DNA of 57,648 nt from a virus (lineage: Duplodnaviria > Caudoviricetes), in IMG/VR virus record IMGVR_UViG_3300032219_002612, positions 1-57,648 of that record. One strand, written 5' to 3'. Below the pieces are notes generated by a model. That model had not been told where the DNA came from and did not search any database. It was given only the letters and a program-made list of their open reading frames with translations. Shown in pieces: positions 1,778 through 57,447 of the stretch (the stretch's first letter is position 1; each line of letters opens with the position of its first letter). A program made the translations under genes and the position numbers.

Positions 1778-3097
1778 CTAGCGGCTTATCTCTTCCCAGT
1801 CCAAAGAAGCGACAACTGTATCGCTGCCTCCGTTAGAAGCAATAATTAATGAAGTTTCAAATGGAACGCCAGTAATTCCATTCCGTTCTAATTGAAATTT
1901 AAAGAGAGTTTCTTTGAGAATGTCGACCTGACCTGAGGATTGATTGGTCTGGCTAAAGAATCCACTAGCTAAAATTCTGCCACCAGAAGTAGAGGTTCCC
2001 GTTAAGTTGTACTCAACGGCGCTATCCGATCCTGCGCTTGTCCACGTGCCCCCAGTTGTAGTCGATGCTGCTCGAATTTGCCAGTTAAAATTGCCGGTTG
2101 AAACTGGGAGAATAGATAACGCAGTCAAAATAACTATTGCATCTAATCTATCGGGTGAAGTCTTTAATTTTAAGGATATAACTGGATAAAAAACTCCTGC
2201 TGTTCCCAGAGTTCTGGGGGAATTAATTGGAGTGTTAATAGCTTTTTGTGACCCCACCAATTGATAACCTCCCTCTGAAATAACCGTTGAACAAATTTGT
2301 TTTAACGTGCTAGAGGTGGCCGGGCTTGGGGTTCCCTCATTTTTTATTTCATATCGCAGGGGGAGACTGGCTGTCGTAATATATGTAGAAGCAATTAAAT
2401 TAGCGTGATGAAAATAGTGGCAAGTAATAAACTGACCGTTGATTACAAATCCCATGCGGACAGTGCCTACTCCGAGCCACTCAAAATCCATCCAAAGAAT
2501 CTGGGCCTTGGTTATATCAAGTATAATGCCAGAGGCCCCAGTCCCATCAAGTTTGTCACCATTCCAATCCGACTGATAGACAGAGGTTTCGATAACAGAA
2601 CCAGTTACAAGCGATCTTTTTACAAAGCTTAAAACGTTACCATACAGCTCCAAATACATACCGTTTTCGTCGCCGTAATAGCCCACCCTCTGTCTAAGAT
2701 TTGTTTTGGCTGGCCCCATGACAAAAGTATTCATCACAAGAAGGGATTTCCCGGGTTGATAGGCAAAAACTTTTATAGTTTCTCGAATAACTTCATCCCC
2801 GCTAGCGGAGCCAACAGATAGATCGACAAGTCCTTGAGAAGAATTAAAGGCGGCCGATGCCGTTCCAGAAGTAAAAGTCGACCACAATCCATTGTCGTCG
2901 TATCTATGATTTGAATCGAAAAGAGTAAGGGGGTTTGATGTGCGAAGCCGGCCAAAAGAATCTGTGGGGAAGGACCCAATGATACCCCCAGCCCCACCGC
3001 TTGAAAGGCTATCTAAACTACTGGAGATCTTCTGGAGACTTCGAACTTCCGTGTCTGACCAGATCGGAGTATTGTTTTCTGGAAAATATTCAGGCAT
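1778..3097 (-). CDS. putative virion structural protein (beta-rich)
   Basis: 439 aa; DSFGRLRTSNPLTLFDS motif recalled from aquatic phage structural proteins; last gene of the virion operon. Confidence 0.6.
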   Translation of the reverse strand: MPEYFPENNTPIWSDTEVRSLQKISSSLDSLSSGGAGGIIGSFPTDSFGRLRTSNPLTLFDSNHRYDDNGLWSTFTSGTASAAFNSSQGLVDLSVGSASGDEVIRETIKVFAYQPGKSLLVMNTFVMGPAKTNLRQRVGYYGDENGMYLELYGNVLSFVKRSLVTGSVIETSVYQSDWNGDKLDGTGASGIILDITKAQILWMDFEWLGVGTVRMGFVINGQFITCHYFHHANLIASTYITTASLPLRYEIKNEGTPSPATSSTLKQICSTVISEGGYQLVGSQKAINTPINSPRTLGTAGVFYPVISLKLKTSPDRLDAIVILTALSILPVSTGNFNWQIRAASTTTGGTWTSAGSDSAVEYNLTGTSTSGGRILASGFFSQTNQSSGQVDILKETLFKFQLERNGITGVPFETSLIIASNGGSDTVVASLDWEEISR

Positions 3098-4531: not shown

Positions 4532-4687
4532 TTATTTACCTTTCGATTTGCCAGCCGCGGTTAATGCAATGGCGATGATTTGTGCTCTTGGTCGTGGCTT
4601 GCCTCCGGCGCCACGCTCTTTACCTTTTTTCTTATTATCAGCGTACAGTTCGCTGATATTAGCGGATACATTTTTTCCTAGAGGCAT
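4532..4687 (-). CDS. small basic protein (51 aa)
   Basis: MPLGKNVSANISELYADNKKKGKERGAGGKPRPRAQIIAIALTAAGKSKGK; resembles the common phage 'SxNIxEL...QAxAIAL' small protein family; not in ORF track. Confidence 0.75.
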   Translation of the reverse strand: MPLGKNVSANISELYADNKKKGKERGAGGKPRPRAQIIAIALTAAGKSKGK

Positions 4688-4693
4688 GGGTCT

Positions 4694-4722
4694 ATATTAT
4701 AGGGTAGGGGGTGGGGGGTCAA
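4694..4722 (-). promoter_or_regulatory. sigma70-type promoter (leaderless)
   Basis: TTGACC-N17-TAATAT-N6-ATG(4687). Confidence 0.6.
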
Positions 4723-5149: not shown

Positions 5150-5298
5150 TATTTCTTCCCCTTGTTACCCCAGTTTGCTGCTCCAACTTTGCGGCATTTG
5201 ACTAGCGCGCCACTGGCGTATGCGGAGGGCCACACTGAGTATCTAGATTTTACCTTGCGGGTGCAGGCGTCGTTGGCTTTCTTTTTTCCTAGGGGCAT
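5149..5298 (-). CDS. small basic protein (49 aa)
   Basis: MPLGKKKANDACTRKVKSRYSVWPSAYASGALVKCRKVGAANWGNKGKK; 'WPSAYASG' family recalled from aquatic phages; not in ORF track. Confidence 0.8.
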   Translation of the reverse strand: MPLGKKKANDACTRKVKSRYSVWPSAYASGALVKCRKVGAANWGNKGKK

Positions 5299-5299
5299 A

Positions 5300-8500: not shown

Positions 8501-11500
8501 GGGCTATCAACCTACGAATGCGGGCCGCAAACTCTTCTAGTTGGTCTTTCTTTTTGGGTTCTTCTTGGAGACGGGCGGCTTGCTTTTGCAAGGCTTCCGC
8601 AGAAGCTTCGGCCAAAGCTTCGAGCCTCGAGCCAGCCTCGGTGGGTACGGCGACGGGGGCTCGGTCTTTTGCCCTGGCCTTGGCCCCAATTACTTGACGC
8701 ACCGCTTCTCCCCGTGTGGCCGGCGGTTGAATCCCCTCTCGGGCTCGGGCCTCACCTAAAGCTTGAGCGGAAAATATATCTAAAGCATTTGTTAGGGCGG
8801 CGTCAAAATAAAGATCTAATTTTCTTCTTACATTCTCCTGGTCTTTGGCGTCTCGAAGGGCGGGCGTTAACAACAGGAGACTTTTAATTTGTTCTTCTGA
8901 GGCCGCCGTTATTTCGGGGTTTTCGGAACGCTGAATAATTTCTAAAATCATTCGGCCCAAAGCTTTTGTCTGCTGAGGATTGAGCCGAATGCCATCTGAA
9001 TCGCTACCTTCAACTTCAGGAGCGGCGGAAAGATCGGCGCCCAAGAACTCTACTCCATCAGTTGCCGCCTGGGCGCTTCCGATGTATTCGGAGATAGCTA
9101 CCTCAAGCTCAGCAACGCTCGCCTGTTTTTTATTTAGCTCAACAAGTTTTGCAATTTTTTCTATTGTCGATTTTGTTTTTGAGTTAGTAACAAGTTTTTC
9201 TACGGCCCGTCTTGTTGAGTCTTTAAGACCTGAACTAATCTCACTTTCTTCCGCGGCGTAACCCGTCAATCGGCCTCGAACAGCAGAATCAATTTGCCTA
9301 CCAATGTACATTTTCATGGCTTCGGGGTTTGAAGAAAGTTCCCCAAGGGCGTTCCAAAGATCTACGGTGCGACCGGGATCTGTTCCATATTTTCTAGCGA
9401 TTAGAAGCATGACTTCAGCTAATTGCTCGCGGGCAAACAAATCAGTTTTCGCTTTGGGCCCTAAAATGTTTGCGAGTTCAAAACCAACCGCGGCTTGCAA
9501 TGGCAGTGAGCTTTTAATATTCCCACTCAAGAAATCATTTAAAGAATTTTGAACTCCGTTTGTTTTTATATAATCCCTGGCGTCAGAAAACTGTTGATCC
9601 CTGGGGATTGATTGATAATACCATGCGCTAGCAATTCTGTCCTTAATTTTTCCGTCGGGCAAAGCGTCTATAAATTTGGTTGCTATGCTCTTAACGGCCT
9701 TGCTTTCCCGAATTTCCGGTGCGGGCGCGGGTGCCGGTAGTGGCACGGAAATGGAAATTGGCTCCCCGCTTAAAGAAACTGAATTAATAATCGGACTCAC
9801 CACTACAACTTCGGGAGCGGGGGAAAGGCGTTTAGCAAACTTAGAAAACCCCGCTTCGCCTAAAGCTTTAATCAGAGCGCCTCTACCGCTTTTAACATAG
9901 TTATTACCGTTAAAAGAAATTACTTCTTGGCGGTCGAATAACCGGGAGACAGCGTTTGCAACCGCCTTGGCCGGGGAGGGAGCGGTGGTCGGTATAGAAA
10001 GAGCGCCAGGAATCTTGACTCGGTAGGATGCATAGACCGGAGACTCTTCGAAAGATTCGGAAGCGTTAACTACTTCTACGGGAGCAGACGTCGCGACTAA
10101 GGCCGCAACGGGTAACGATCTCCCGGCTTCTTCCATTCCCTCCGCTATCTCTAGAGCTTTGTTAGCTATGGCTGGAAGACTCGCTCGGCCACCGTCCATA
10201 ACGGCTTGTGTTGCCGCCCGGAAAAGACTTCGTTCGTCTTTAGTTATTGCGCCTCGCCGAGTGTTTATATCGAGAGCGTCCAGCCATTCCTCCACACCAA
10301 CGGTCTTAAATAAATCATCGGCAACCGTTACCCCAAGCACGCCTTCGGTTCTGCCTTCAAGATGGTTTTCAATCATGCGATAGATTCGAAGATCGTAGGA
10401 GTCGAAAGTGTTTGCGGGGCGGGGAGCGGCTGGGGAAGTCCCGGGGGACGGGACGGGGGATGGGGCGGGTTGGCTCGCGTCCATAAACTCTTTTGAATTC
10501 TTGCGGAGCGTTGAAAGAGCATCTTCGATGCTTTGACGCATTACCAAGCGATCCCTTGCGTTGGGGGCTAATCCCAAGCCACGCTTTACCACCGTGGCCA
10601 TACTGTCAAACCACACGCCCAATCTAGCGAGAACAGATTTATTTTCTTCTTTGAGAATATCCTTTAATCTTTTGGTCGCTCTGGCAATATCGTTTGCGTT
10701 GGTGGCCACGGCCAATTCTGTAATACTTCCGGTAAGATTAAGTTGGGATAGCTGACGAATTCCTTCCATGGCAACAAGATAAGAATCGTTAGCCAAGGCT
10801 CTAATCTTGGACTGCGTATCTGGATTGGTTATGTCAGACCCCGAATTAGAGAAATACAATCTGGCGATTGCGAGTCTTGCAGCTTGGGAGAGCGAGTCGC
10901 CTATTGCCCTGAGTTCTTCGATCGGGTCGAGCCCCAGCTCGCGGAAATATCGCAAGGTCTCCATGTGGATTGTTTCCTCCAGAAGACTTAAAGTCATAAA
11001 AGTTTTAAATTTTTCTGGGGAGAGAATTTTTTTCGTATTTTCTAAGAGGGCCGGGTTAACAAGAATTAAGTCCGACTCATTATCAGTTCCAACCATCACG
11101 GCAATGGCGTGGGTAAAGTCGGGATCAATTTTTACGTTATAATTATGAGCCTGCCCCTTGGCATCCCGGAAAGTAATAACATTATTTGAGAAGTCGGAAC
11201 CCAGGGCGAGCTTGAAAATTTCTTCCGTAGAAGCTATCTGTTCTGGAGTTGCCTGAGCCTCAGACCGAACGGGGGCAACAACTTCGGTAGGCTTGGGTGC
11301 AGCTTCTTCAGCCTTTAGTCCTTCAAACCCGGCACCAGTTGTGGCGTCCAGCAGACGAAGCTTGGCCCGCATACGGTCGATGTTCTGTTGGTCCACTTCT
11401 GCTTGAGACTCCAAGAAGATAAGGTTGGGACGACTTGCGCTGTCCGTTCTCCAGACTCGATAAATTAACTGGACGGCTTGGATTGCGCTGACCGGGGGAG

Positions 11501-14500
11501 ACATAATAATCATGTCTCGGGGTTGATCGCCAAACTTATCGTCCAACTCAATCCCGGTTCCACCCATCTCTTTCGTGGCAATTAGAACGTCAGCATCGCC
11601 TTCATTGAAGGCGGCCAGGGCTTGTTCTTTTGTTTGCCCAGAGCCGGTGTACATCCGAGCAATCTTTAGATCGGGAGCCAATTTGAGGATTGCAGCTTCC
11701 ACTGCCGCCGAGGTGGGGTCAACTGTTTCGCCCCGAGCATTTGTTTCGGAAACAAAGCCGACATAAATAATGGGTTTGCGACCTTGCCGAATTGATTTGA
11801 TGGCTCGCTTTGCCGCAGCGTCTACTTTGTATTCTTCAAGTGCTCGCTTCTGGGCGGCGACAAGTCTTCGTAAAGAAGCAATGTCGGTGTTTTGCGTGCC
11901 GCCGTACATATTTTTAATGTCTTCAAGTTGTTTGGTAATTGTCGAATCAAGTGGCACATCTTGGAATTCAACATTAACCCCATCGAGTCGAAGGGACCGA
12001 GAGCGAAGAACTCCATTCTTTACGAGCCCGTCGAGGTAAGCTTCCAGCCGATCTTGCATCTCTGCTTCAGAAACCCCCGGCGCCAAAGTCCAGTATGATT
12101 TCTTTCCGCCCCGAAGGTATTGCTTTTCAAACCCAAGCCGATTAATCAAGGCATCGGGAGACTCGTTGTCGAAAACACCAAGGCGACCAAGAGATAGAAG
12201 CTGATCGGGGGTTTCAAAGGGAGTCCCTGAGGCCATCAATACTCTGCCAGCTTTAAGCGAAATCTCGTTCATCAAGATCGACCACGCCCGGCTCTTGCCT
12301 TCTTGGGTAGCTTTGTGGAGGTTTCTTCCAGAATGCTGTTCGTCAAACAACACCACAGTTTTGCTGTCCACCAATGGAAGGAGTTTCTCTAGATACTGAG
12401 AGGTGTAGGTGGAGACAACAATCTTCCCCGGGATTTTTTCAACCGGGAGTCCGCGTCCATTATCCCCCTTGCCTCCCCGGGCCACAATGGGAATTCCCAT
12501 TAGCTCGGAGTCCTTGGCGATAGAACCACCGATGGTTCCCAAATCCCAATTCGGGGTTACTGCGTCGGGAGCGGTAAGATAGAAAACATTAAATCCCTTC
12601 GCTAAATAATATTTACCCGCTGCCAGCAGCACTCGAGTTTTACCGGTTCCGGGTCCGTTAGCCAGATAGAAAGCTTTATGCTTAGAGTTCTCCATCGTGG
12701 TAACGGCTGCTGCCACATCCTGCTTTTGCTCACTAGATAGAAGCTTTAAAGCTTCCACCCCGATTGGGTCTAGAACTTTTTCGTTGTAAGGTCTACCTAA
12801 CTGATTGCGGGGCTCGACGAAGGACTTGGGGAGCGGGGTGCCACGAGGGCGTTCAGCTCCAGGTCTCCCTGCTCCGGTTGCCTGACTTGCATCAACTCGT
12901 CCCACTTCTTTCCGCTCAGGGGGAACGGCTTCTTGAGAAACTCGCTTTGTGGTGGCAGCACGTTTGGCCTCGAGTTCCGAGAGCTTTTTGCGAGCCTCCT
13001 CACGTCGACCATCGGTTGTCTTGAGGTCGGGCTTTGTGGCTTCAGGTTGTTTGGATTCTTCATAGGTACCTTTCTCGTTTATGTTAAGTCCGCTATCGAG
13101 CAGGATTTGGTCGCTAACTCGGAGCAGATTCGATCGGAAGGTTAAAGCAATTTTATTTTTAGCTTCTCCCTCTTCAAGTGTTTGCGAAGCCAAATAGGGC
13201 TCCGCAAGTTTGTTTAGTTTGTCGATGTAATCATCGGCTTGTTTTTGTGACAGTCTGTCATCCTCTACCGCGTTCTTTAAATTGTTATCGATGGCTTCTG
13301 AGAGTTCCGTGATGGCTTCCGGAGAAAGCTTTTCTTGCGCGATCGACTCAATATAATTTTCAAAAGCCCGGAGCATTTTGACCGAACGAACTTTTTGCAC
13401 TTCCGACAACAGGGACTTTGCTCCCGCGAGTTCTTCATCGTCAAAGAAACTATCCGATTGTAGTTTGCGGAATCTTTCTGCCGCGGGTTGTATTTGAGCG
13501 GCTGTTAGATTTCCCTCTCGAACTAAGCCCTCCGGTTCGCTAACTGCGCGGGAAGGGAGAGTTCCCGCCTGCTGGTTCTTTCGGTACTCTCCCTCTAAAC
13601 TGGAGATAAATCTATTACGAACTACTTCTTGGATAACTTTAATATCGCCAACGGGAAGTTGGACTCCCGCAGCCTCCTGTTGGGTGATCTGTTTTCCCAA
13701 AACTAAAGCATCGAACGCGAGCTTTTCTGCTTCCGTAGTTAAAGTTTGTCTGAAAGAAGGAACAATCTGTTGGGCGAGAACCGCTAAAGCTTCCTGCCGT
13801 TGAGCTGGCGAGGGAACTTCAGACTGTCCGACAACCTGATTATCCACCTCCGTCGCGTCAATCTGATCAAGAGTTTCATTGATGGCCCCCGCGACGGCTG
13901 GGTTCAAACCCTGCTCCTCCGCCAACGTTTCCGCATCAACGGCGTTAACGCGTAGACCGGGAGTCTCGAGGCTTACGGCTGCTCCAATTCCGACGCCCGC
14001 TCGCATCCGAGGAACGGCTCTGCGAATAAAGTCCCGCAGCCGGCTATTAAAAATTGTACTAAGAGAAAGATTGTTTTTGCCCTGGCGAAGTTCGTAAAGA
14101 AAACTGTTGATCGTGGCAGAGGATACCTCATCGGATATATTATATTTTTGATACCCAGCCAAAGACTTACTTTGAAGATAAGATTTTTTGCGCTCAACGT
14201 AAGCCAATAGGGTTTCGGCGGGAGTCATGAGATCCCGACCGTTTTCGTCGATCGCTCCGAGGCTTTGGAGTAACTCAACCGTCGCGGGGTTTTTTAAATT
14301 AAAAACGCTGGCGAGAACATTTTGGGCGTTTTCTCTCGGATCGGGATTAAGCTTCTGATACTTTTGAAAAGATTCACTTTCCGGATTGTTGATCGGTAGA
14401 ATGACATCGGGTCTAGCCTCGAGCTCGGGGGCTAATTTTCCCTCGCGGGATTCTGCTTGAACTTCGCCCTCGAATTGTTGAACAAGTTTTGACACAGACT

Positions 14501-34015: not shown

Positions 34016-35398
34016 TTAGCTAACGTAGTCAAGGCTGATCGGAGCGCGTTTGTGCAGGATGGCATAACCATACTGCGGGAACACGGGCCGAGCACCGCTG
34101 GCACAAACCCCGCGGAAATATCCGACATTTCCATCCGGGTTAGTCTGACGATCCAAGATGTTAACCCATTTAAACTCACCACGGTAGTTCTGGGGGTTGA
34201 ATGCCATCTTGTTGGCAGTGTTGACCGGGCTGGGAACGACAGAACGCATTACATCTTGGTGGAAGATGTAACTGATTTCATAGTCCGCTGTCTCATAGGC
34301 TGCGTTGATATCATACGAGGTACCCTTGGTGGTCGTGTTCTTCTTGAACGGATACGTGCGAATGAGTTTGTCATTCGTGGTATCATACACGCGGAACCGA
34401 GGAGGATACGCATCGATTGAATGATAGAAACCACCGTAGCTACGCTCAATCCCGAGAGGGGTGAGGAGCTCATTAGGCTTCGCATAACGGAAATCCTGAC
34501 GGATATCCGCGTTCAATCGGATGAGGCTCTCGCTGGTTTCCGCACCGCAGATCAACATGAACACCGGGGCTCCGTTTTCACGGCCCATAGCGTTGGTGCC
34601 TGCGCCGTCGCGGACCAATTTCATGTAGAGGCGTTTGAGGATTCCTTGAGTCAACTGGCTGGCGGGCAAGTTTGCCGCAGTGATGGCGCCAGAAGCGGCA
34701 GTGCCGACTCCGGCAGTAACCGCATCATAAACTACCTTCGCATCAGCCGAGCTGGACGAGCTGGAGGCAACGATAGAAGAGGTGCTGGGGTAAACCAGGT
34801 TTCCTTCGTTGGCAACTTGAGCTGTGAATAGATTGCGATAGCGATCCTGCCAGATCAAGGATGTGCTCTCAGTGAGAACGTCCATGATGTTGGACAACTG
34901 TTCCTTACGTTTCACTGCGAAGCGCAAGTCTTCGAGTGCAATGTCAGGAGAGTCGATCGACGCCCATTCCAAGCTGTACTGACGGAGCTTCTGACCGAAG
35001 GTCACGCCATTAAGAGCCTGGGGAAGAACGTTGCCCGCAGTGGAGGTGGAGGCCACAGGGGGTGTCGATCCGCCAGAAATCGTCTGGGTATAGGCGTTGA
35101 AACCGGTATAGGTTTGGTCAACAGGGTTAGAACCCAGTTTACGCCAGCCGCTACCAGCATCAGCCGTAATTTCATTTTCCGCATAACCATTGGTGTTACC
35201 GGCGCCCGCAAGGGTGAGAGAAGGATAGAACCGCTCGAAAGTAACCGAGCTGATTACATCGCCCATCTCCTCGGGGAATTGTTCCTGCTTGGTCAATTTG
35301 AGCCAAGCAGAGGTATCGATCGTCCGGCGATAAATCTCCGGTCCGATACGACCCGCTTCTTTAACGAGCAACTGCTCGATATTATAAGTTGTAGACAT
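34016..35398 (-). CDS. major capsid protein
   Basis: 460 aa after scaffold; strong SD (GAAAGGA), own promoter, biased codon use; ATG 35398 preferred. Confidence 0.8.
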   Translation of the reverse strand: MSTTYNIEQLLVKEAGRIGPEIYRRTIDTSAWLKLTKQEQFPEEMGDVISSVTFERFYPSLTLAGAGNTNGYAENEITADAGSGWRKLGSNPVDQTYTGFNAYTQTISGGSTPPVASTSTAGNVLPQALNGVTFGQKLRQYSLEWASIDSPDIALEDLRFAVKRKEQLSNIMDVLTESTSLIWQDRYRNLFTAQVANEGNLVYPSTSSIVASSSSSSADAKVVYDAVTAGVGTAASGAITAANLPASQLTQGILKRLYMKLVRDGAGTNAMGRENGAPVFMLICGAETSESLIRLNADIRQDFRYAKPNELLTPLGIERSYGGFYHSIDAYPPRFRVYDTTNDKLIRTYPFKKNTTTKGTSYDINAAYETADYEISYIFHQDVMRSVVPSPVNTANKMAFNPQNYRGEFKWVNILDRQTNPDGNVGYFRGVCASGARPVFPQYGYAILHKRAPISLDYVS

Positions 35399-35624
35399 AT
35401 TAGTAATTTTCCTTTCAACCTTCCCCCGCTCGCGCAAAGGGTCGGTTATGATTTATAATAAATGTGCCAACCTCTATCGAGGTTATCCACTTTCATTACT
35501 TTTCAAAACTTTTCCCTGGCGGCATCCCAGAGCTTTTAATGCCCGAATTCTGCTAGACCGTCTCAATCTTTATAGGTCTTGTTCAAGTAGGATCTCAATC
35601 TTTATACCTGCCTCGAACAATTTA
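35399..35624 (-). ncRNA. structured 5' leader of the capsid gene (candidate cis-regulatory RNA)
   Basis: Two hairpins with the identical loop sequence TATAAAGATTGAGA, a possible pseudoknot and two more hairpins. Confidence 0.5.
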
Positions 35625-41304: not shown

Positions 41305-41706
41305 ATGAACAGTTGTACAAAAGGCAAAGTTGGAGAGCGTGAGTGGCGCGACGTCCTCAAAGCGGAGGGCTACGAAGCGAGGCGTGGCAGGCAATTTTCC
41401 GGCAGTCCGGAGTCGCCGGACGTTGTCTCCAACCTCCCATTTCACTTTGAAGTCAAACGGGTTGAAGCCCTCAACATTAATAAAGCTATGGAGCAGGCAA
41501 AACGAGATTGTGGCAAGAGTGTGCCAGTGGTGGCCCATAGAAAAAACAAGTGCGAGTGGCTTGTTACAATGGTTGCAAAAGATTGGCTTGAATTAGTGCG
41601 TGAGAAACATGCCGACGCTTGTGCAGTTGCGCCCGTGGCAGGAGAAGTCAAAAAGTACTATACTTCAGGCAATTCGGAGCCACTCGATCGCGCTGGATTG
41701 CTCTGA
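41305..41706 (+). CDS. Holliday junction resolvase (Hjc-like PD-(D/E)XK)
   Basis: NS..KGK.GERE...PDV...FEVKR. Confidence 0.8.
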   Translation: MNSCTKGKVGEREWRDVLKAEGYEARRGRQFSGSPESPDVVSNLPFHFEVKRVEALNINKAMEQAKRDCGKSVPVVAHRKNKCEWLVTMVAKDWLELVREKHADACAVAPVAGEVKKYYTSGNSEPLDRAGLL

Positions 41707-52236: not shown

Positions 52237-52319
52237 TTATAAGGTGGAAGCACTTGTGCTTTCAGCAAAGAGACTTACGTAGACCATATGTAGGATCTGT
52301 AAGTCCTTGATGCAGTGAT

Positions 52320-52640
52320 AGGGTGGGGGGTCGAATGGATGGTACAATTGTTCCATGTGCTTGAGTATTAGGATTCTAGGATTCGAAGGGTGGTAGGGTG
52401 GGGGGTGTAGGGGTGGTTTTGAACTCGTTGTTCCTACAGCTTTGTGTGTGTGGGCGTGTGTGTGCAAACACCCGGAACGAGTTGGGATACCCCCACCCAG
52501 TGGGACCACCCCCACCCTCTCTTTCTTTATATTTATATATATTAATAGTAAACATACACTTAGACAAGGACCCAAGGTTCAAAATTTGGGTGGGGGTACC
52601 CTTTTTTGACCCCCCACCCCAGGAGACACCCCCACCCTAA
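52320..52640. repeat. iteron-like cluster (7 x CCCCCACCC) with AT-rich core, candidate origin
   Basis: GGGTGGGGG at 52321, 52396, 52588; CCCCCACCC at 52490, 52509, 52611, 52629; AT tract ~52522-52552. Confidence 0.6.
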
Positions 52641-52667
52641 ATCGTAGCCCTTTGGGGATAAATACAG

Positions 52668-52750
52668 TGGGAGGAGCTGGATTTGAACCAGCGAAGGCAT
52701 AAGCCAGCAGATTTACAGTCTGCCCCGTTTGACCGCTTCGGTATCCTCCC
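52668..52750 (-). tRNA. tRNA-Tyr(GTA)
   Basis: Acceptor GGGAGGA/TCCTCCC+A, anticodon arm GCAGA-CTGTAAA-TCTGC, long variable arm, T-loop TTCAAAT; no encoded CCA. Confidence 0.93.
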
Positions 52751-55255: not shown

Positions 55256-55646
55256 CCTTGCCATGCGGCTGGCTGACGCCGCGGCTAAGACAAGTCAGGA
55301 TCAGTTCGTTCGAGTCGGTGCAGCGGTGCTTCGGGAAGACGGCTCTGTTTGCGGGATTGGGTACAACGGATATCCCCCGGGTTTTGAACTAACCAAACAG
55401 GAATCTTTGGACCGCGACTACCGGCGGGACTTTATGGTTCATGCCGAAATCAATGCCCTTGCTTATAGCCGACCCGGCGAGCCCCACCTTTTGGCCGTCA
55501 CTTACCCTCCCTGTAAAGCCTGCGTCCTAGAAGCAGTCCGATATGGCGTGAAATACATTGCCTACCGCGAAAACGAGAAGCGTCCCATATTTCCGTCTGA
55601 CTATTTGGCAGCCCGGCTTGGTGTCACTTTGATCGCCGAAAAATAA
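55230..55646 (+). CDS. dCMP deaminase
   Basis: VGA, GYNG, HAEINAL, PCKAC. Confidence 0.9.
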   Translation: MALKTKWIDLAMRLADAAAKTSQDQFVRVGAAVLREDGSVCGIGYNGYPPGFELTKQESLDRDYRRDFMVHAEINALAYSRPGEPHLLAVTYPPCKACVLEAVRYGVKYIAYRENEKRPIFPSDYLAARLGVTLIAEK

Positions 55647-55692
55647 ATTAAATTTTTAAAGTACATACAACAGTATAGCAGGGCGGCGGAAG

Positions 55693-55721
55693 GGGGGAGG
55701 GGGGTGGGGGTGCGTATAGGG
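55693..55721 (+). promoter_or_regulatory. candidate phage-specific early promoter, copy 1
   Basis: GGGGGAGGGGG-N10-GTATAGGG; same motif and spacing at 56898-56926. Confidence 0.55.
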
Positions 55722-55788
55722 TTTGTCCCGCAAACCATACCCCCGATAGGGGGAGGGGGAGGGGGGAAACCAAAAGGAAACAAATCAA

Positions 55789-56211
55789 ATGGAAAACGCA
55801 ATCGTAACTCAAGCCTCAATCGAATTGAAACCCCAACGCAAAGCCAAGAGTGGGCGAACACTAAAGGCGGTGTTCGGTAAGTGGCACGGCGAAGCATTAG
55901 TCACCGAAGCAGGGAGACTATGCCCACGGAAGGAGTTTGGGATTGTCACCGATACCAAGGGTGTTCAACTCGCAACCCGCTACGATGAAGCGGTGCAGGA
56001 ATGGACAACCCTAGGAATGGCGAAGATGTCCCACGAGTCCACGGAATTATCGGCGGGCAAGCGGTCGCTCGTAAAGATGTTCCACGATCCGAAGAACGGA
56101 CGGCTCACCATCGTCACCGCACCCGCAAACAAGGATTCGAAATTGGTCAAGCAGATGAAGGATGCAGGATGCACCGATGAACAGATCGAGGCGGTACTAG
56201 CCAAGAGGTAA
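55789..56211 (+). CDS. hypothetical (probable early) protein
   Basis: 140 aa, SD AAGGA, followed by a terminator. Confidence 0.8.
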   Translation: MENAIVTQASIELKPQRKAKSGRTLKAVFGKWHGEALVTEAGRLCPRKEFGIVTDTKGVQLATRYDEAVQEWTTLGMAKMSHESTELSAGKRSLVKMFHDPKNGRLTIVTAPANKDSKLVKQMKDAGCTDEQIEAVLAKR

Positions 56212-56222
56212 GGAAACACTGG

Positions 56223-56260
56223 AGAGGGGGGAGGGAAACCTCCCCCCTCCCCTTTTTATT
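56223..56260 (+). terminator. intrinsic terminator
   Basis: GAGGGGGGAGG-GAAA-CCTCCCCCCTC followed by ccctttttatt. Confidence 0.8.
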
Positions 56261-56299
56261 TCAAAGAATCCAAGAATCTTAGAATCTATGATACCAAGC

Positions 56300-56764
56300 T
56301 TAACCAGCTGTAATGTCGATGGCCTGCTTCATCGCATCATCGCTTCGAAGAACCGCGAGGTTCACGATCGTCTTGCCATTGCTTCCTTGATTCTGCGAAG
56401 CCAAGCCCAATGTAGGGCGAGCTATACGATCAACTTTCTCCAAGACTTCGATATGATCTTTCAATTCCTTGCGGGTTCCAGGCATCTCGGATTCGAGGAC
56501 GTCCAAGCTGTGGTCAACTTGATTAGCAATCCTGTTCAGATATCGAGCCTGCTTATCGACACTACTCTGCACCACGGCCTGTGTATTAGCTTGTATAATC
56601 TTGTGGGTCACGGCATCCTTCTTTGCTTTCCAACCGCTTCTTCGAATCTTTGCATCCAAGGTGTTAAGACTCAACACATAAGTGGCTGCGATAAAGCTAC
56701 GGCTTTTCCCTTGGATATAATCCTTCTCGACAGCTTTCCAATCTACACTCAACGACTTACCCAT
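56300..56764 (-). CDS. terS: terminase small subunit (N-terminal HTH)
   Basis: VDWKAVEKDYIQG.S...IA..Y..S.NTL...IRR.GW, helical middle, ...ARPTLGL. Confidence 0.7.
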   Translation of the reverse strand: MGKSLSVDWKAVEKDYIQGKSRSFIAATYVLSLNTLDAKIRRSGWKAKKDAVTHKIIQANTQAVVQSSVDKQARYLNRIANQVDHSLDVLESEMPGTRKELKDHIEVLEKVDRIARPTLGLASQNQGSNGKTIVNLAVLRSDDAMKQAIDITAG

Positions 56765-56770
56765 AAGGCA

Positions 56771-56799
56771 AGCTTATTACGTGACGTGCACTACGTCAA
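56771..56799 (-). promoter_or_regulatory. terS promoter (leaderless)
   Basis: TTGACG-N17-TAAGCT-N6-ATG(56764). Confidence 0.65.
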
Positions 56800-56897
56800 T
56801 GCATCTTTGAATCAAGGATTCAATGAATCCGTGCATCCTGTGCACCAGCTTTCATCTTCCAATATCCATCCCCCCTACCTATCGGGTCGTTCCCGTA

Positions 56898-56926
56898 GGG
56901 GGAGGGGGACATCGGTCGGTATAGGG
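56898..56926 (+). promoter_or_regulatory. candidate phage-specific early promoter, copy 2
   Basis: GGGGGAGGGGG-N10-GTATAGGG upstream of SD AAGGAG and ATG 56962. Confidence 0.55.
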
Positions 56927-56961
56927 ATTATGGAAGCAACCCTAACCCAAGGAGAAAACAA

Positions 56962-57447
56962 ATGAGTAACACATACCTTCAAGACTTCGGTCTGCTACGC
57001 AAGCAGATGAACGATCGAGAGGTCAACGACCCTATGTCTGGCAGTGGCAGATGGGAGGACTTGCAGATGGACTTGAGGCAACCTCATATCCCGCAGGCTC
57101 GCAGAGCGTCGATGCCTGCCAACCGCAAGCTTAAGATTGGTGACCTTGAGATCAGTATCAGGGAGCCCGATGCCAAGCTGACCACGGCTTTTGGGTTCGT
57201 GACCAATGGAGTTTACAAGCACAAGCTAGTAACCCCCAAGGCTCACACCTACCAGCGTTCTTTGCAAGAGACCCGCGGGCAGGTTCGTGACCCCAAGGAT
57301 GCAGAGCTTTACTGCCCCCACGGTTCGGTGGCCGAGGCTATCAAGCGGTATGTCCGCAAGGCTAGGTTTGCCACCATCCCAAGCGTGGCTGACAAGTATC
57401 GCGAGAAGGTCAGACTGCTATGGCCAGCACGGAGGGTCGGGCGATGA
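56962..57447 (+). CDS. hypothetical (probable early) protein
   Basis: 161 aa, SD AAGGAG. Confidence 0.75.
   Translation: MSNTYLQDFGLLRKQMNDREVNDPMSGSGRWEDLQMDLRQPHIPQARRASMPANRKLKIGDLEISIREPDAKLTTAFGFVTNGVYKHKLVTPKAHTYQRSLQETRGQVRDPKDAELYCPHGSVAEAIKRYVRKARFATIPSVADKYREKVRLLWPARRVGR

Follow-up and report, generated by a model that had tools for sequence, protein, structure and literature searches.

We found that a G-rich bipartite motif, GGGGGAGGGGG-N5-GGT-N2-GTATAGGG, precedes two genes in the linear 57,648-bp virus record IMGVR_UViG_3300032219_002612 (IMG/VR; Caudoviricetes; CheckV completeness 81%), which was analyzed over its whole length and is referred to here as the window. The motif probably acts as a non-consensus promoter. 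More tentatively, we assign its reading to a sigma-like module that lies within a 3737-aa protein encoded among the virion genes of the same phage. Taken together, a lineage-specific promoter class with the sigma-like module as its reader is the best explanation that we can offer for the data, and we regard this combined explanation as evenly poised.

In this proposal, the motif would form the core of a promoter class peculiar to the phage lineage, with one or two copies per genome. Rightward transcription would begin at or just after GTATAGGG, and the RNA would open with a stable stem-loop leader. Copy 1 would be ancestral and, with an extra A/T block upstream, would drive a short unit made up of gene 1 and a terminator; copy 2 would have been added later in one subclade and would head a long run of small genes. 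As its reader, the best candidate would be the host core RNA polymerase, directed by the module (aa ~858-1084), which is similar to sigma factors of the extracytoplasmic function (ECF) type. To act, the giant protein would need to be delivered together with the DNA, or to be cleaved and released.

Conservation and position of the motif

The two copies are located at 55693-55721 and 56898-56926, both on the plus strand, with the same spacing and a length of 29 nt, exactly as the initial annotation had described them. None of 100 dinucleotide shuffles contained two or more matches (mean 0.00), and a third match with three or fewer mismatches was not found in the window. With a less strict regular expression (two G-runs, 0-14 nt, [CG]G?T[AG]TA), these two sites remained the only ones in the window, and the complete relative G002 likewise had two; block shuffles of the window gave a mean of 0.095 overlapping matches. 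The copies lie 36-68 nt upstream of start codons and are co-oriented with the genes behind them, both of which have the Shine-Dalgarno sequence claimed for them initially (Table 1). Two conserved blocks at a fixed spacing, upstream of a gene and pointing towards it, are what a bipartite promoter would look like.

All five close relatives (G001-G005) carry two copies on the gene strand, and reversed-pattern controls gave none. The remark in the initial annotation that only two copies are visible therefore holds for the window and also for the complete relatives. Among the relatives found via the gene between the copies, G006 and G008 each had a single match, and G007 had none when three mismatches were allowed. 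The distant relatives G007, G008, and G009 have a single copy, which is always the one before gene 1. In G007, the G-runs and TGCGTAT of this copy are intact and are followed by CTCC in place of AGGG, while G009 retains the A/T block, the G-runs, and CGGTATAGGG, its sigma-like piece being just 29% identical. The TCGGTAT variant of copy 2 in the window is also present in copy 1 of the locus L052 and in G009.

An exact degenerate scan of IMG/VR returned 12 loci, of which six belong to this phage family and five of the other six resemble chance matches in coding DNA. The sole non-family match that does not is L045:1623-1650 on a 216,910-bp viral contig, where intergenic-looking G-runs are followed by AGTATAGGGGGG. 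A 22-nt form of the motif had no match in 185,579 species genomes. Judged by these scans, the motif is not a general element.

With the A/T block as the sole criterion for a copy-1 unit, all loci gathered gave 26 distinct units. Most of the 68 stretches returned by a metagenome search for the A/T block together with two G-runs were unrelated low-complexity DNA. The three G-runs are present in 26/26 units, as is T[GC][CG]GT at the same place, and GTATAGGG is present in 22/26. The A/T block occurs in all versions of copy 1, including those of G008, which has a different upstream gene, and of G009 (AAAGTG), and it is absent from copy 2. Its distance to TGCGT is fixed at 45-47 nt, while the intervening 25-28 nt before the G-runs vary freely in sequence.

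The initial annotation had seen no TTGAC-type promoter for either gene, and two scans agree with this: a consensus scan detected no plus-strand sigma-70-like site in 55500-57100, and a second scan detected none in either intergenic region. The candidate -10 hexamers TATAGG, TATAAG, TATCTC, and TATTAG never end in T, and the combination of a -35 element with a -10 element ending in T that marks host sigma-70 promoters was not found. A by-eye reading for sites of host regulators (NtcA-type GTA-N8-TAC, sigma-54, extended -10) revealed nothing that fits both copies. Since the phage uses sigma-70-type promoters elsewhere (Table 1), the G-rich motif would represent a separate class.

One alternative is that the motif is an activator-dependent host promoter, in which TATAGG serves as a poor -10 element and the -35 contact is substituted by a protein of the phage or the host that binds to the G-runs, so that no phage sigma factor is involved. 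Activator-dependent promoters without a -35 element are common in phages. The TAT of the putative -10 element is present in 25 of the 26 copy-1 units (the exception is L083, with TGCGTGGATAGGG), no phage polymerase or sigma factor is recognizable by sequence, and host-type promoters are used elsewhere in the genome. However, the final T is consistently missing, the approximately 25 invariant bases exceed the usual need of an activator site, and no candidate activator was identified. Moreover, this reading would not explain what the sigma-like fold of the giant protein is for. We consider this alternative unlikely.

The DNA behind copy 1 encodes a structured leader. The RNA that runs from GTATAGGG up to the gene 1 start codon is predicted to fold at -28 kcal/mol (z -2.49), and the versions of G007 and G008 have z values of -3.51 and -1.68, respectively. 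Across relatives, the stem of the leader hairpin changes from CCCCC/GGGGG to GCCC/GGGC and to GATCC/GGATC around a constant GATA loop and thus covaries. A second G-run tract at 55749-55766 is the 3' side of the leader structure. The pairings of TATAGGG and of the G-tract that the initial annotation had proposed all exist in the sequence, and folding lends them support for copy 1, but not for copy 2 (z -0.51) or for the C-run stretch upstream of it (z -0.68). Because the copy-1 leader folds well and its hairpin covaries, the downstream pairing of TATAGGG more likely marks where a structured 5' leader begins. Upstream of copy 2, relatives pair in another register, namely CCCCCTC/GAGGGGG in G001 and G002 and CCCTAT/ATAGGG in L054 and L115.

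The initial annotation had also considered that the G-runs form a G-quadruplex or a hairpin that requires the helicase region of the giant protein. Copy 1 does have four G-runs (6, 6, 5, and 3) within 30 nt, and the helicase region follows the sigma-like module of the same protein after approximately 280 residues. Copy 2, however, has only two long G-runs (runs of 5, 5, 2, and 3 in the window and of 5, 4, 2, and 2-3 in G001, G004, and G005), and since it lacks four G-runs, a G-quadruplex cannot be the shared feature. In addition, the downstream pairing of TATAGGG differs per lineage and is not significant for copy 2. A shared structure of this kind is very improbable as an explanation of the motif.

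The sequence behind the motif is exchanged between relatives. Homology behind copy 2 stops right after GTATAGGGATT in G003 (L005/L012/L041), L049, and L054, which continue with a different leader and first gene, and L115 has yet another first gene at this place. The start of the small-gene block behind copy 2 looks like a cassette-exchange hot spot in these alignments, and joints located right behind the motif are as expected for the downstream edge of a promoter. Gene 1 is the first open reading frame (ORF) after copy 1 in every relative, its protein being replaced or strongly diverged in G003, G007, G008, and G009, and a hairpin equivalent to the terminator-like one of the window is also found 3' of gene 1 in G007, G008, and G009. 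In these three relatives, the place of copy 2 is taken by a short intergenic region without the motif, and copy 2 therefore appears to be a later gain of one subclade. Gene 2 opens a run of small plus-strand ORFs that, in G002, reaches to ~10 kb past the position of the window end.

Alternatively, the motif could itself be transcribed. The host polymerase would then start upstream, for copy 1 in or just after the A/T block, and the G-runs and GTATAGGG would act in the RNA leader, for example in stability, attenuation, antitermination of the nut/put type, or control of translation. The conserved TAAAGT of the A/T block fits a TAnnnT -10 element, several spacers contain TATTAT, TAAAAT, or TATATT, and the covarying RNA structure lies behind the motif. 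Sites of the nut and put type likewise occur twice per genome in front of operons, hairpins in other parts of the phage pair G-runs with C-runs, and RNA-library contigs extend over copy 2 (see below). On the other hand, the -10 candidates have no -35-like hexamer and differ in position between relatives, and copy 2 has neither an A/T block nor a sigma-70-like site upstream. The conserved 29 nt have no conserved pairing partner, the two folds at copy 2 being those with the weak z values given above, and the cassette joints lie behind the motif and not in front of it. We regard a transcribed element as rather unlikely. A sigma-70 promoter in the spacer of copy 1 was rejected on the same shifting hexamers and the lack of a -35 element, and survives only as part of this alternative.

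A further possibility arises from the gene between the two copies, which encodes a 154-aa helix-turn-helix (HTH) protein. The motif might be a packaging site of the pac type for this protein, or a replication origin in which an A/T unwinding block lies beside G-run repeats. The PHROG matches of the HTH protein include an unknown family (7.7e-9), a DNA-binding protein (7e-6), and three small-terminase families (2.5e-5 to 4.5e-3), and its model, in which an N-terminal HTH is accompanied by two long helices and a conserved tail that is disordered, has a terminase-like build. The protein is 69-78% identical in seven relatives, including G009 (74%, with 29% for the sigma-like piece), and is thus far more conserved than its neighbors. 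Packaging sites are often located in or beside the small terminase gene. The end classes assigned by IMG/VR are features of assembly. As for an origin, the A/T block and the G-run repeats resemble origin anatomy, and a further cluster of G-runs (52237-52666) has an A/T-rich core next to it as well. However, both copies are co-oriented with genes at a short distance from the start codons, the second copy arose exactly before another operon, and different cassettes were joined right behind the motif. The terminase assignment is weak as well: the best PHROG match is a family of unknown function, no Pfam match was found for the protein, and Foldseek gave no match at E <= 0.001 (best 2ao9_B at E 0.7). 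We therefore consider a packaging or replication site quite unlikely. Overall, a promoter fits the pattern of conservation, joints, and leader better than a packaging site or a G-quadruplex does.

The sigma-like module of the giant protein

The giant protein (P0001) is a candidate source of a factor that reads such a promoter. The AlphaFold (AF2) model of its residues 840-1100, computed with giant-protein homologues from a HMMER search as alignment input, has a mean predicted local distance difference test (pLDDT) score of 74 and shows two confident helical domains separated by a disordered linker of ~50 residues. In a Foldseek search with this model, sigma chains accounted for 42 of the 49 rows listed and TFIIB-type proteins for four more, with a best E of 0.028; chain F of the initiation complexes among these rows was taken to be sigma. 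VIA-align matched domain 1 (model residues 19-107) to the N-terminal fragment of SigR (Z 6.7, root-mean-square deviation (rmsd) 3.7, 73 residues aligned), RpoE (Z 6.7, rmsd 3.5, 76 aligned), pro-sigmaK (Z 6.4), and ShbA (Z 6.0). Domain 2 (model residues 168-238) was matched to region 4 of sigmaE on -35 DNA (Z 6.0, rmsd 2.9, 69 aligned, 19% identity) and to region 4 of SigR (Z 5.6, 23% identity). Whole ECF sigma factors are colinear with the module, with a Z of 6.5 over 153 residues for AlgU and an alignment over 165 residues for sigmaE. On the basis of the model, an ECF-like sigma module at aa ~858-1084 is probable but unproven.

A HMMER search with the sigma-like piece over 1.84 billion representatives identified seven proteins, all of which are giants (3762-4629 aa, with the piece at the same relative position) or, in one case, a fragment; a word-indexed search returned just one fragment. 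For P0006 and P0009, two further proteins with the piece, no viral contigs were obtained. The module was found in seven of the eight relatives searched (G001, G002, G004, G005, G006, G007, and G008), the miss being G003, a 36-kb fragment. As it is also present in G009, module and motif occur together in 9/9 near-complete genomes, the window included; the initial annotation had suggested a scan of relatives for co-occurrence with a sigma-like domain.

Its broader suggestion, that the two blocks are elements for a phage-specific sigma factor, stands in part. The core is promoter-like in its conserved place and orientation, in the swapped cassettes and the leader behind it, and in its difference from sigma-70 sites, and a sigma-like fold is plausible, but no Pfam sigma profile matches. 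The giant protein also has the make-up of a polyvalent protein, that is, a giant multidomain protein with a SWI2/SNF2 ATPase encoded among virion genes; the Pfam matches of its helicase region all lie below the curated cut-offs. A more far-reaching and doubtful possibility is a virion-borne sigma factor: an ECF-like module in an injected polyvalent protein of 3700-4600 aa, beside an SNF2-type ATPase, would capture the host core polymerase at infection and fire one or two G-rich promoters that are not recognized by the sigma factors of the host.

Several observations weigh against a sigma module as the reader of the motif, and some of them against the motif as a promoter. No Pfam sigma profile matched the giant protein over its whole length at E <= 0.1, nor did any match five fragments of it (skipping aa 1351-1849) at E <= 10. 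In six-frame translations of G000, G002, G004, G005, and G008, PF04542 and PF04545 (Sigma70_r2 and Sigma70_r4) gave nothing at E <= 1, while their controls matched in 11 and 14 of 14 genomes, respectively. The PDB yielded no sequence or profile match to the giant protein or the module. The VIA-align Z scores reach at most 6.8, and unrelated helical proteins score equally high; no Foldseek E was <= 0.001 and no Z was >= 8, and helical models often reach such Z values by chance. In the language-model Atlas, the nearest named cluster to aa 840-1100 is a viral Sigma70_r2 cluster (score 0.94), a kind of lead that is often due to chance.

The co-occurrence likewise admits another explanation. All nine genomes belong to one family, and shared ancestry alone could therefore account for it. 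The module of G007 is the most diverged (28% identity, with only residues 6-174 aligned), yet the G-runs and TGCGTAT of its motif are unchanged and only the next six bases differ. There is no clean co-variation of the module with the motif. Packaging of the giant protein in the virion we infer from the position of its gene only. Furthermore, copy 2 is missing in G007, G008, and G009, so that gene 2 can be expressed without it and copy 2 is dispensable.

Contigs from RNA libraries also bear on copy 2. Five metatranscriptome runs contain 5-7% of the sampled words, and four of them were used, in the form of assembled contigs, which derive from relatives that are 85-95% alike; the runs carry freshwater or lake labels. 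Such contigs are unable to show transcription starts, holes in their coverage prove nothing, and their depths cannot rank genes. Two contigs cover copy 2: X3 record 12 begins ~36 nt upstream of it, and X2 record 6 spans from gene 1 to gene 2. There is therefore transcription, or DNA carry-over, across copy 2. The contigs may represent read-through or carried-over DNA, and they do not favor copy 2 as the sole start. The left ends of contigs near copy 1 are at ~55741 (X1), ~55757 (X3), ~55783 (X2), and ~55781 (X4), no RNA contig covers 55518-55721, and the mean depth over the gene 1 contigs is 47 and 54 compared to 4-8 for neighboring contigs; within the limits stated, nothing was concluded from these values.

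Genomic setting and further features

The coordinates of the features are compiled in Table 1. A block of virion genes occupies the minus strand at 1778-41538 and includes a weak large-terminase match, tail proteins, and the giant ORF. The plus-strand block starts at 41600 with genes for a helicase, an exonuclease, DNA polymerase A, and dCMP deaminase, and continues through both motif copies to the window end. Compared to the complete relative G002 (67,614 bp), the window lacks ~10 kb just past its end, which in G002 contain small plus-strand ORFs, a 780-aa ORF, and a GP88-like protein. The 780-aa ORF (P0002; L025:13107-15449 in G002) has no Pfam match; by eye, its N-terminus shows putative GHKL-ATPase-like motifs.

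Table 1 Positions of the features of the window that are referred to in the text
Feature	Position	Strand	Remarks
TTGACC-15-TATAAT	4722-4696	-	Near-perfect sigma-70-type; a C-run pair, the complement of a further G-run pair, forms the spacer
Giant ORF P0001, 3737 aa	5598..16811	-	Within virion gene block, flanked by tail/virion structural genes
SNF2/Strawberry-notch-like helicase region, aa 1359-1825	11337..12737	-	Pfam AAA_34 2e-5, Helicase_C_4 1.3e-4, ResIII 4.5e-4; PHROG DNA helicase 7.9e-5
Sigma-like module, residues 840-1100 of giant protein	13512..14294	-	Helical domain 1 ~aa 858-946, disordered linker, domain 2 ~aa 999-1084
TTGACA-16-TACATT	35652-35625		Precedes 473-aa gene 34016-35437
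A/T block AAAWTWAATTTTTAAAGTA	55644..55663	+	Directly 3' of dCMP deaminase stop codon; upstream element of copy 1 only
Motif copy 1	55692..55721	+	Three G-runs, TGCGTAT, AGGG; 55693-55721 in the initial annotation
Structured leader	55720..55771	+	Outer stem 55720-55729 with 55761-55771 around hairpin CCCCC-GATA-GGGGG 55740-55753
Gene 1, 140 aa, no family	55789..56211	+	AAGGA Shine-Dalgarno-like before ATG at 55789
Terminator-like G/C-run hairpin and T-run after gene 1	56224..56258	+	11 pairs, loop 4, tail CCCTTTTTAT
154-aa HTH protein, small-terminase-like build	56300..56764	-	Between the two motif copies
Sigma-70-type promoter of HTH gene	56771..56799	-	TTGACG, 17 nt, TAAGCT, 6 nt, ATG; read directly
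Hairpin CCCCCTAC ... GTAGGGGG	56871..56902	+	3' arm is first G-run of copy 2; in minimum-energy fold, z only -0.68
Motif copy 2	56898..56926	+	Two G-runs, ACATCGG, TCGGTATAGGG; in G001-G005 and further metagenome contigs
Gene 2, 161 aa, no family	56962..57447	+	AAGGAG Shine-Dalgarno-like before ATG at 56962

The DNA polymerase is less than 28% identical to that of any phage record searched and the large terminase had no match, so that no close cultured phage was found. The host group is probably cyanobacterial. A virion protein (1778-3097) is 67% identical to one in T4-like Synechococcus myophages, and an ORF at 53952-54584 matches a PHROG labelled ferredoxin at 1e-39; these two similarities do no more than hint at a cyanobacterial host. 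Among the relatives, G006 is a single 81,730-bp record with two different motif-1/gene-1/HTH loci, one G007-like and one window-like (L030, L032, L093, L105), and has a single match to the sigma-like piece despite the two locus versions. This record may be a chimeric or concatenated assembly.

The sigma-70-type promoters of the phage are illustrated by the one of the HTH gene, TTGAC[CG]-N17-TAAGCT, which is kept in the window, G001, G002, G005, and G008 and reads TAAACT in G007. It was not listed by the consensus scan because its -10 element matches at just 3/6 positions. With the ATG just 6 nt behind this -10 element, the mRNA would have no leader or almost none. A nearly leaderless mRNA is also implied at 4685-4722, where the promoter at 4722-4696 lies 8 nt before the ATG of a 51-aa ORF (4532-4687). 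A second ORF that starts with the same residues (MPLGK) has its ATG at 5298, at the right edge of a gap at 5150-5299. If the HTH gene encodes a small terminase, it lies ~15 kb from the large terminase gene and is under its own promoter. Between the HTH gene and copy 2, the divergent region (56780-56850) contains palindromes, GAATC-AAG-GATTC and repeated GTGCA/TGCAC, that are kept in close relatives and are possible operator sites.

The non-coding stretch at 52237-52666 (430 bp), beside a tRNA-Tyr gene (52667-52750, minus strand), contains seven GGGTGGGGG/CCCCCACCC runs on both strands, which form a long imperfect inverted repeat followed by the A/T-rich core. The stretch is 89% identical in G002, where neither flank can be aligned, and the core is kept even in G009. 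Rfam identified only the tRNA in this region. Its possible roles are those of an origin, a structured RNA, or a large terminator.

Comparison with known transcription systems

Phages are known to take over transcription by means of a whole RNA polymerase that is injected (N4, crAss-like, and phiKZ-like phages) or by small sigma factors and modifiers that are made after infection. Such a takeover would occur in a new form if a sigma module within a giant protein served one or two private promoters. If the giant is indeed a virion protein that works in this way, it would open a third route, and the polyvalent giant proteins of uncultured phages would gain a concrete, testable role in transcription. 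In limited literature searches, which do not prove absence from print, neither a packaged sigma factor nor a G-rich promoter of cyanophages was found. The pair would be compact and possibly orthogonal, consisting of a sequence of ~30 bp and a module of ~240 aa, and could serve as an expression switch in the host group. Even without the link to a sigma factor, an element of ~80 bp that is conserved across genomes with proteins less than 30% identical still needs explaining.

The promoters of coliphage N4 are short DNA hairpins upstream of the start, whereas the conserved motif described here has no such hairpin. Otherwise, the N4 system is similar in that there are very few cognate promoters per genome, which lie before small genes of unknown function. 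A further similarity to the N4 virion RNA polymerase (PMC13492108) is that a protein longer than 3500 aa, whose gene lies among those of the virion, would carry the specificity for transcription into the cell. No polymerase domain or catalytic motif was found in the giant protein of the window, however, which would deliver a specificity factor for the host enzyme. We rejected an N4-type virion polymerase with hairpin promoters, as the giant protein showed no RNA_pol Pfam match and none of the catalytic motifs of such polymerases, and a PDB search by sequence was negative. Among the ORFs of G002, all of which were covered by a DxDxD-type scan, nothing conserved was revealed.

The class III promoters of phage T7 run into the start as TATAGGG, which is followed by a 5' RNA stem-loop, and the motif likewise ends in TATAGGG. 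In contrast to promoters of the T7 group, the rest of the motif consists of G-runs, and a T7-like polymerase gene was not found. Neither the giant protein nor 20 other ORFs, most of them among the larger ones, had a T7-like polymerase match in Pfam scans, and PF00940 (RNA_pol, T7-like) was not detected in five genomes, where the control of this profile was also silent throughout.

Polyvalent proteins have been described as injected giant multidomain proteins with a SWI2/SNF2-type ATPase, with jump-starting of transcription as one theme (Iyer et al. 2017, PMC5512222). The giant multidomain protein found here has such an ATPase and is similar in this respect. In contrast, the transcription domains named in connection with this theme are virion RNA polymerases and RNA polymerase-modifying enzymes and not sigma factors, and the word sigma does not occur in its main text, although its supplements may list further domains.

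Free phage sigma factors, such as gp55 of T4, gp28 and gp34 of SPO1, and the group 2 factors of jumbo phages, resemble the proposed system in that a factor made by the phage redirects the host core polymerase to promoters found only in the phage. Chain 7d7d_F of the T4 late transcription complex is indeed among the fold neighbors of the module (Z 5.6). These factors differ in being separate small proteins that act after infection on middle and late genes, as opposed to a module fused into a giant protein of the virion block; the jumbo-phage factors of group 2 are likewise described as free proteins (PMC7824862).

In its modelled fold, the module resembles the ECF (group 4) sigma factors, in that it consists of two helical domains and a linker and aligns colinearly with AlgU, sigmaE, sigmaH, and sigmaL. 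Unlike these factors, it has no Sigma70_r2/r4 profile match, its linker is long (~50 residues) and disordered, and it is internal to a 3737-aa protein instead of being a free factor of 20 kDa. A similar mixture is seen at the DNA level. ECF promoters typically contain CGT in the -10 element and an AAC-type -35 element. The motif is bipartite with a fixed spacing and has a CGT-containing block near the presumed start, as ECF promoters do, whereas its upstream block consists of G tracts in place of the AAC-type -35 element.

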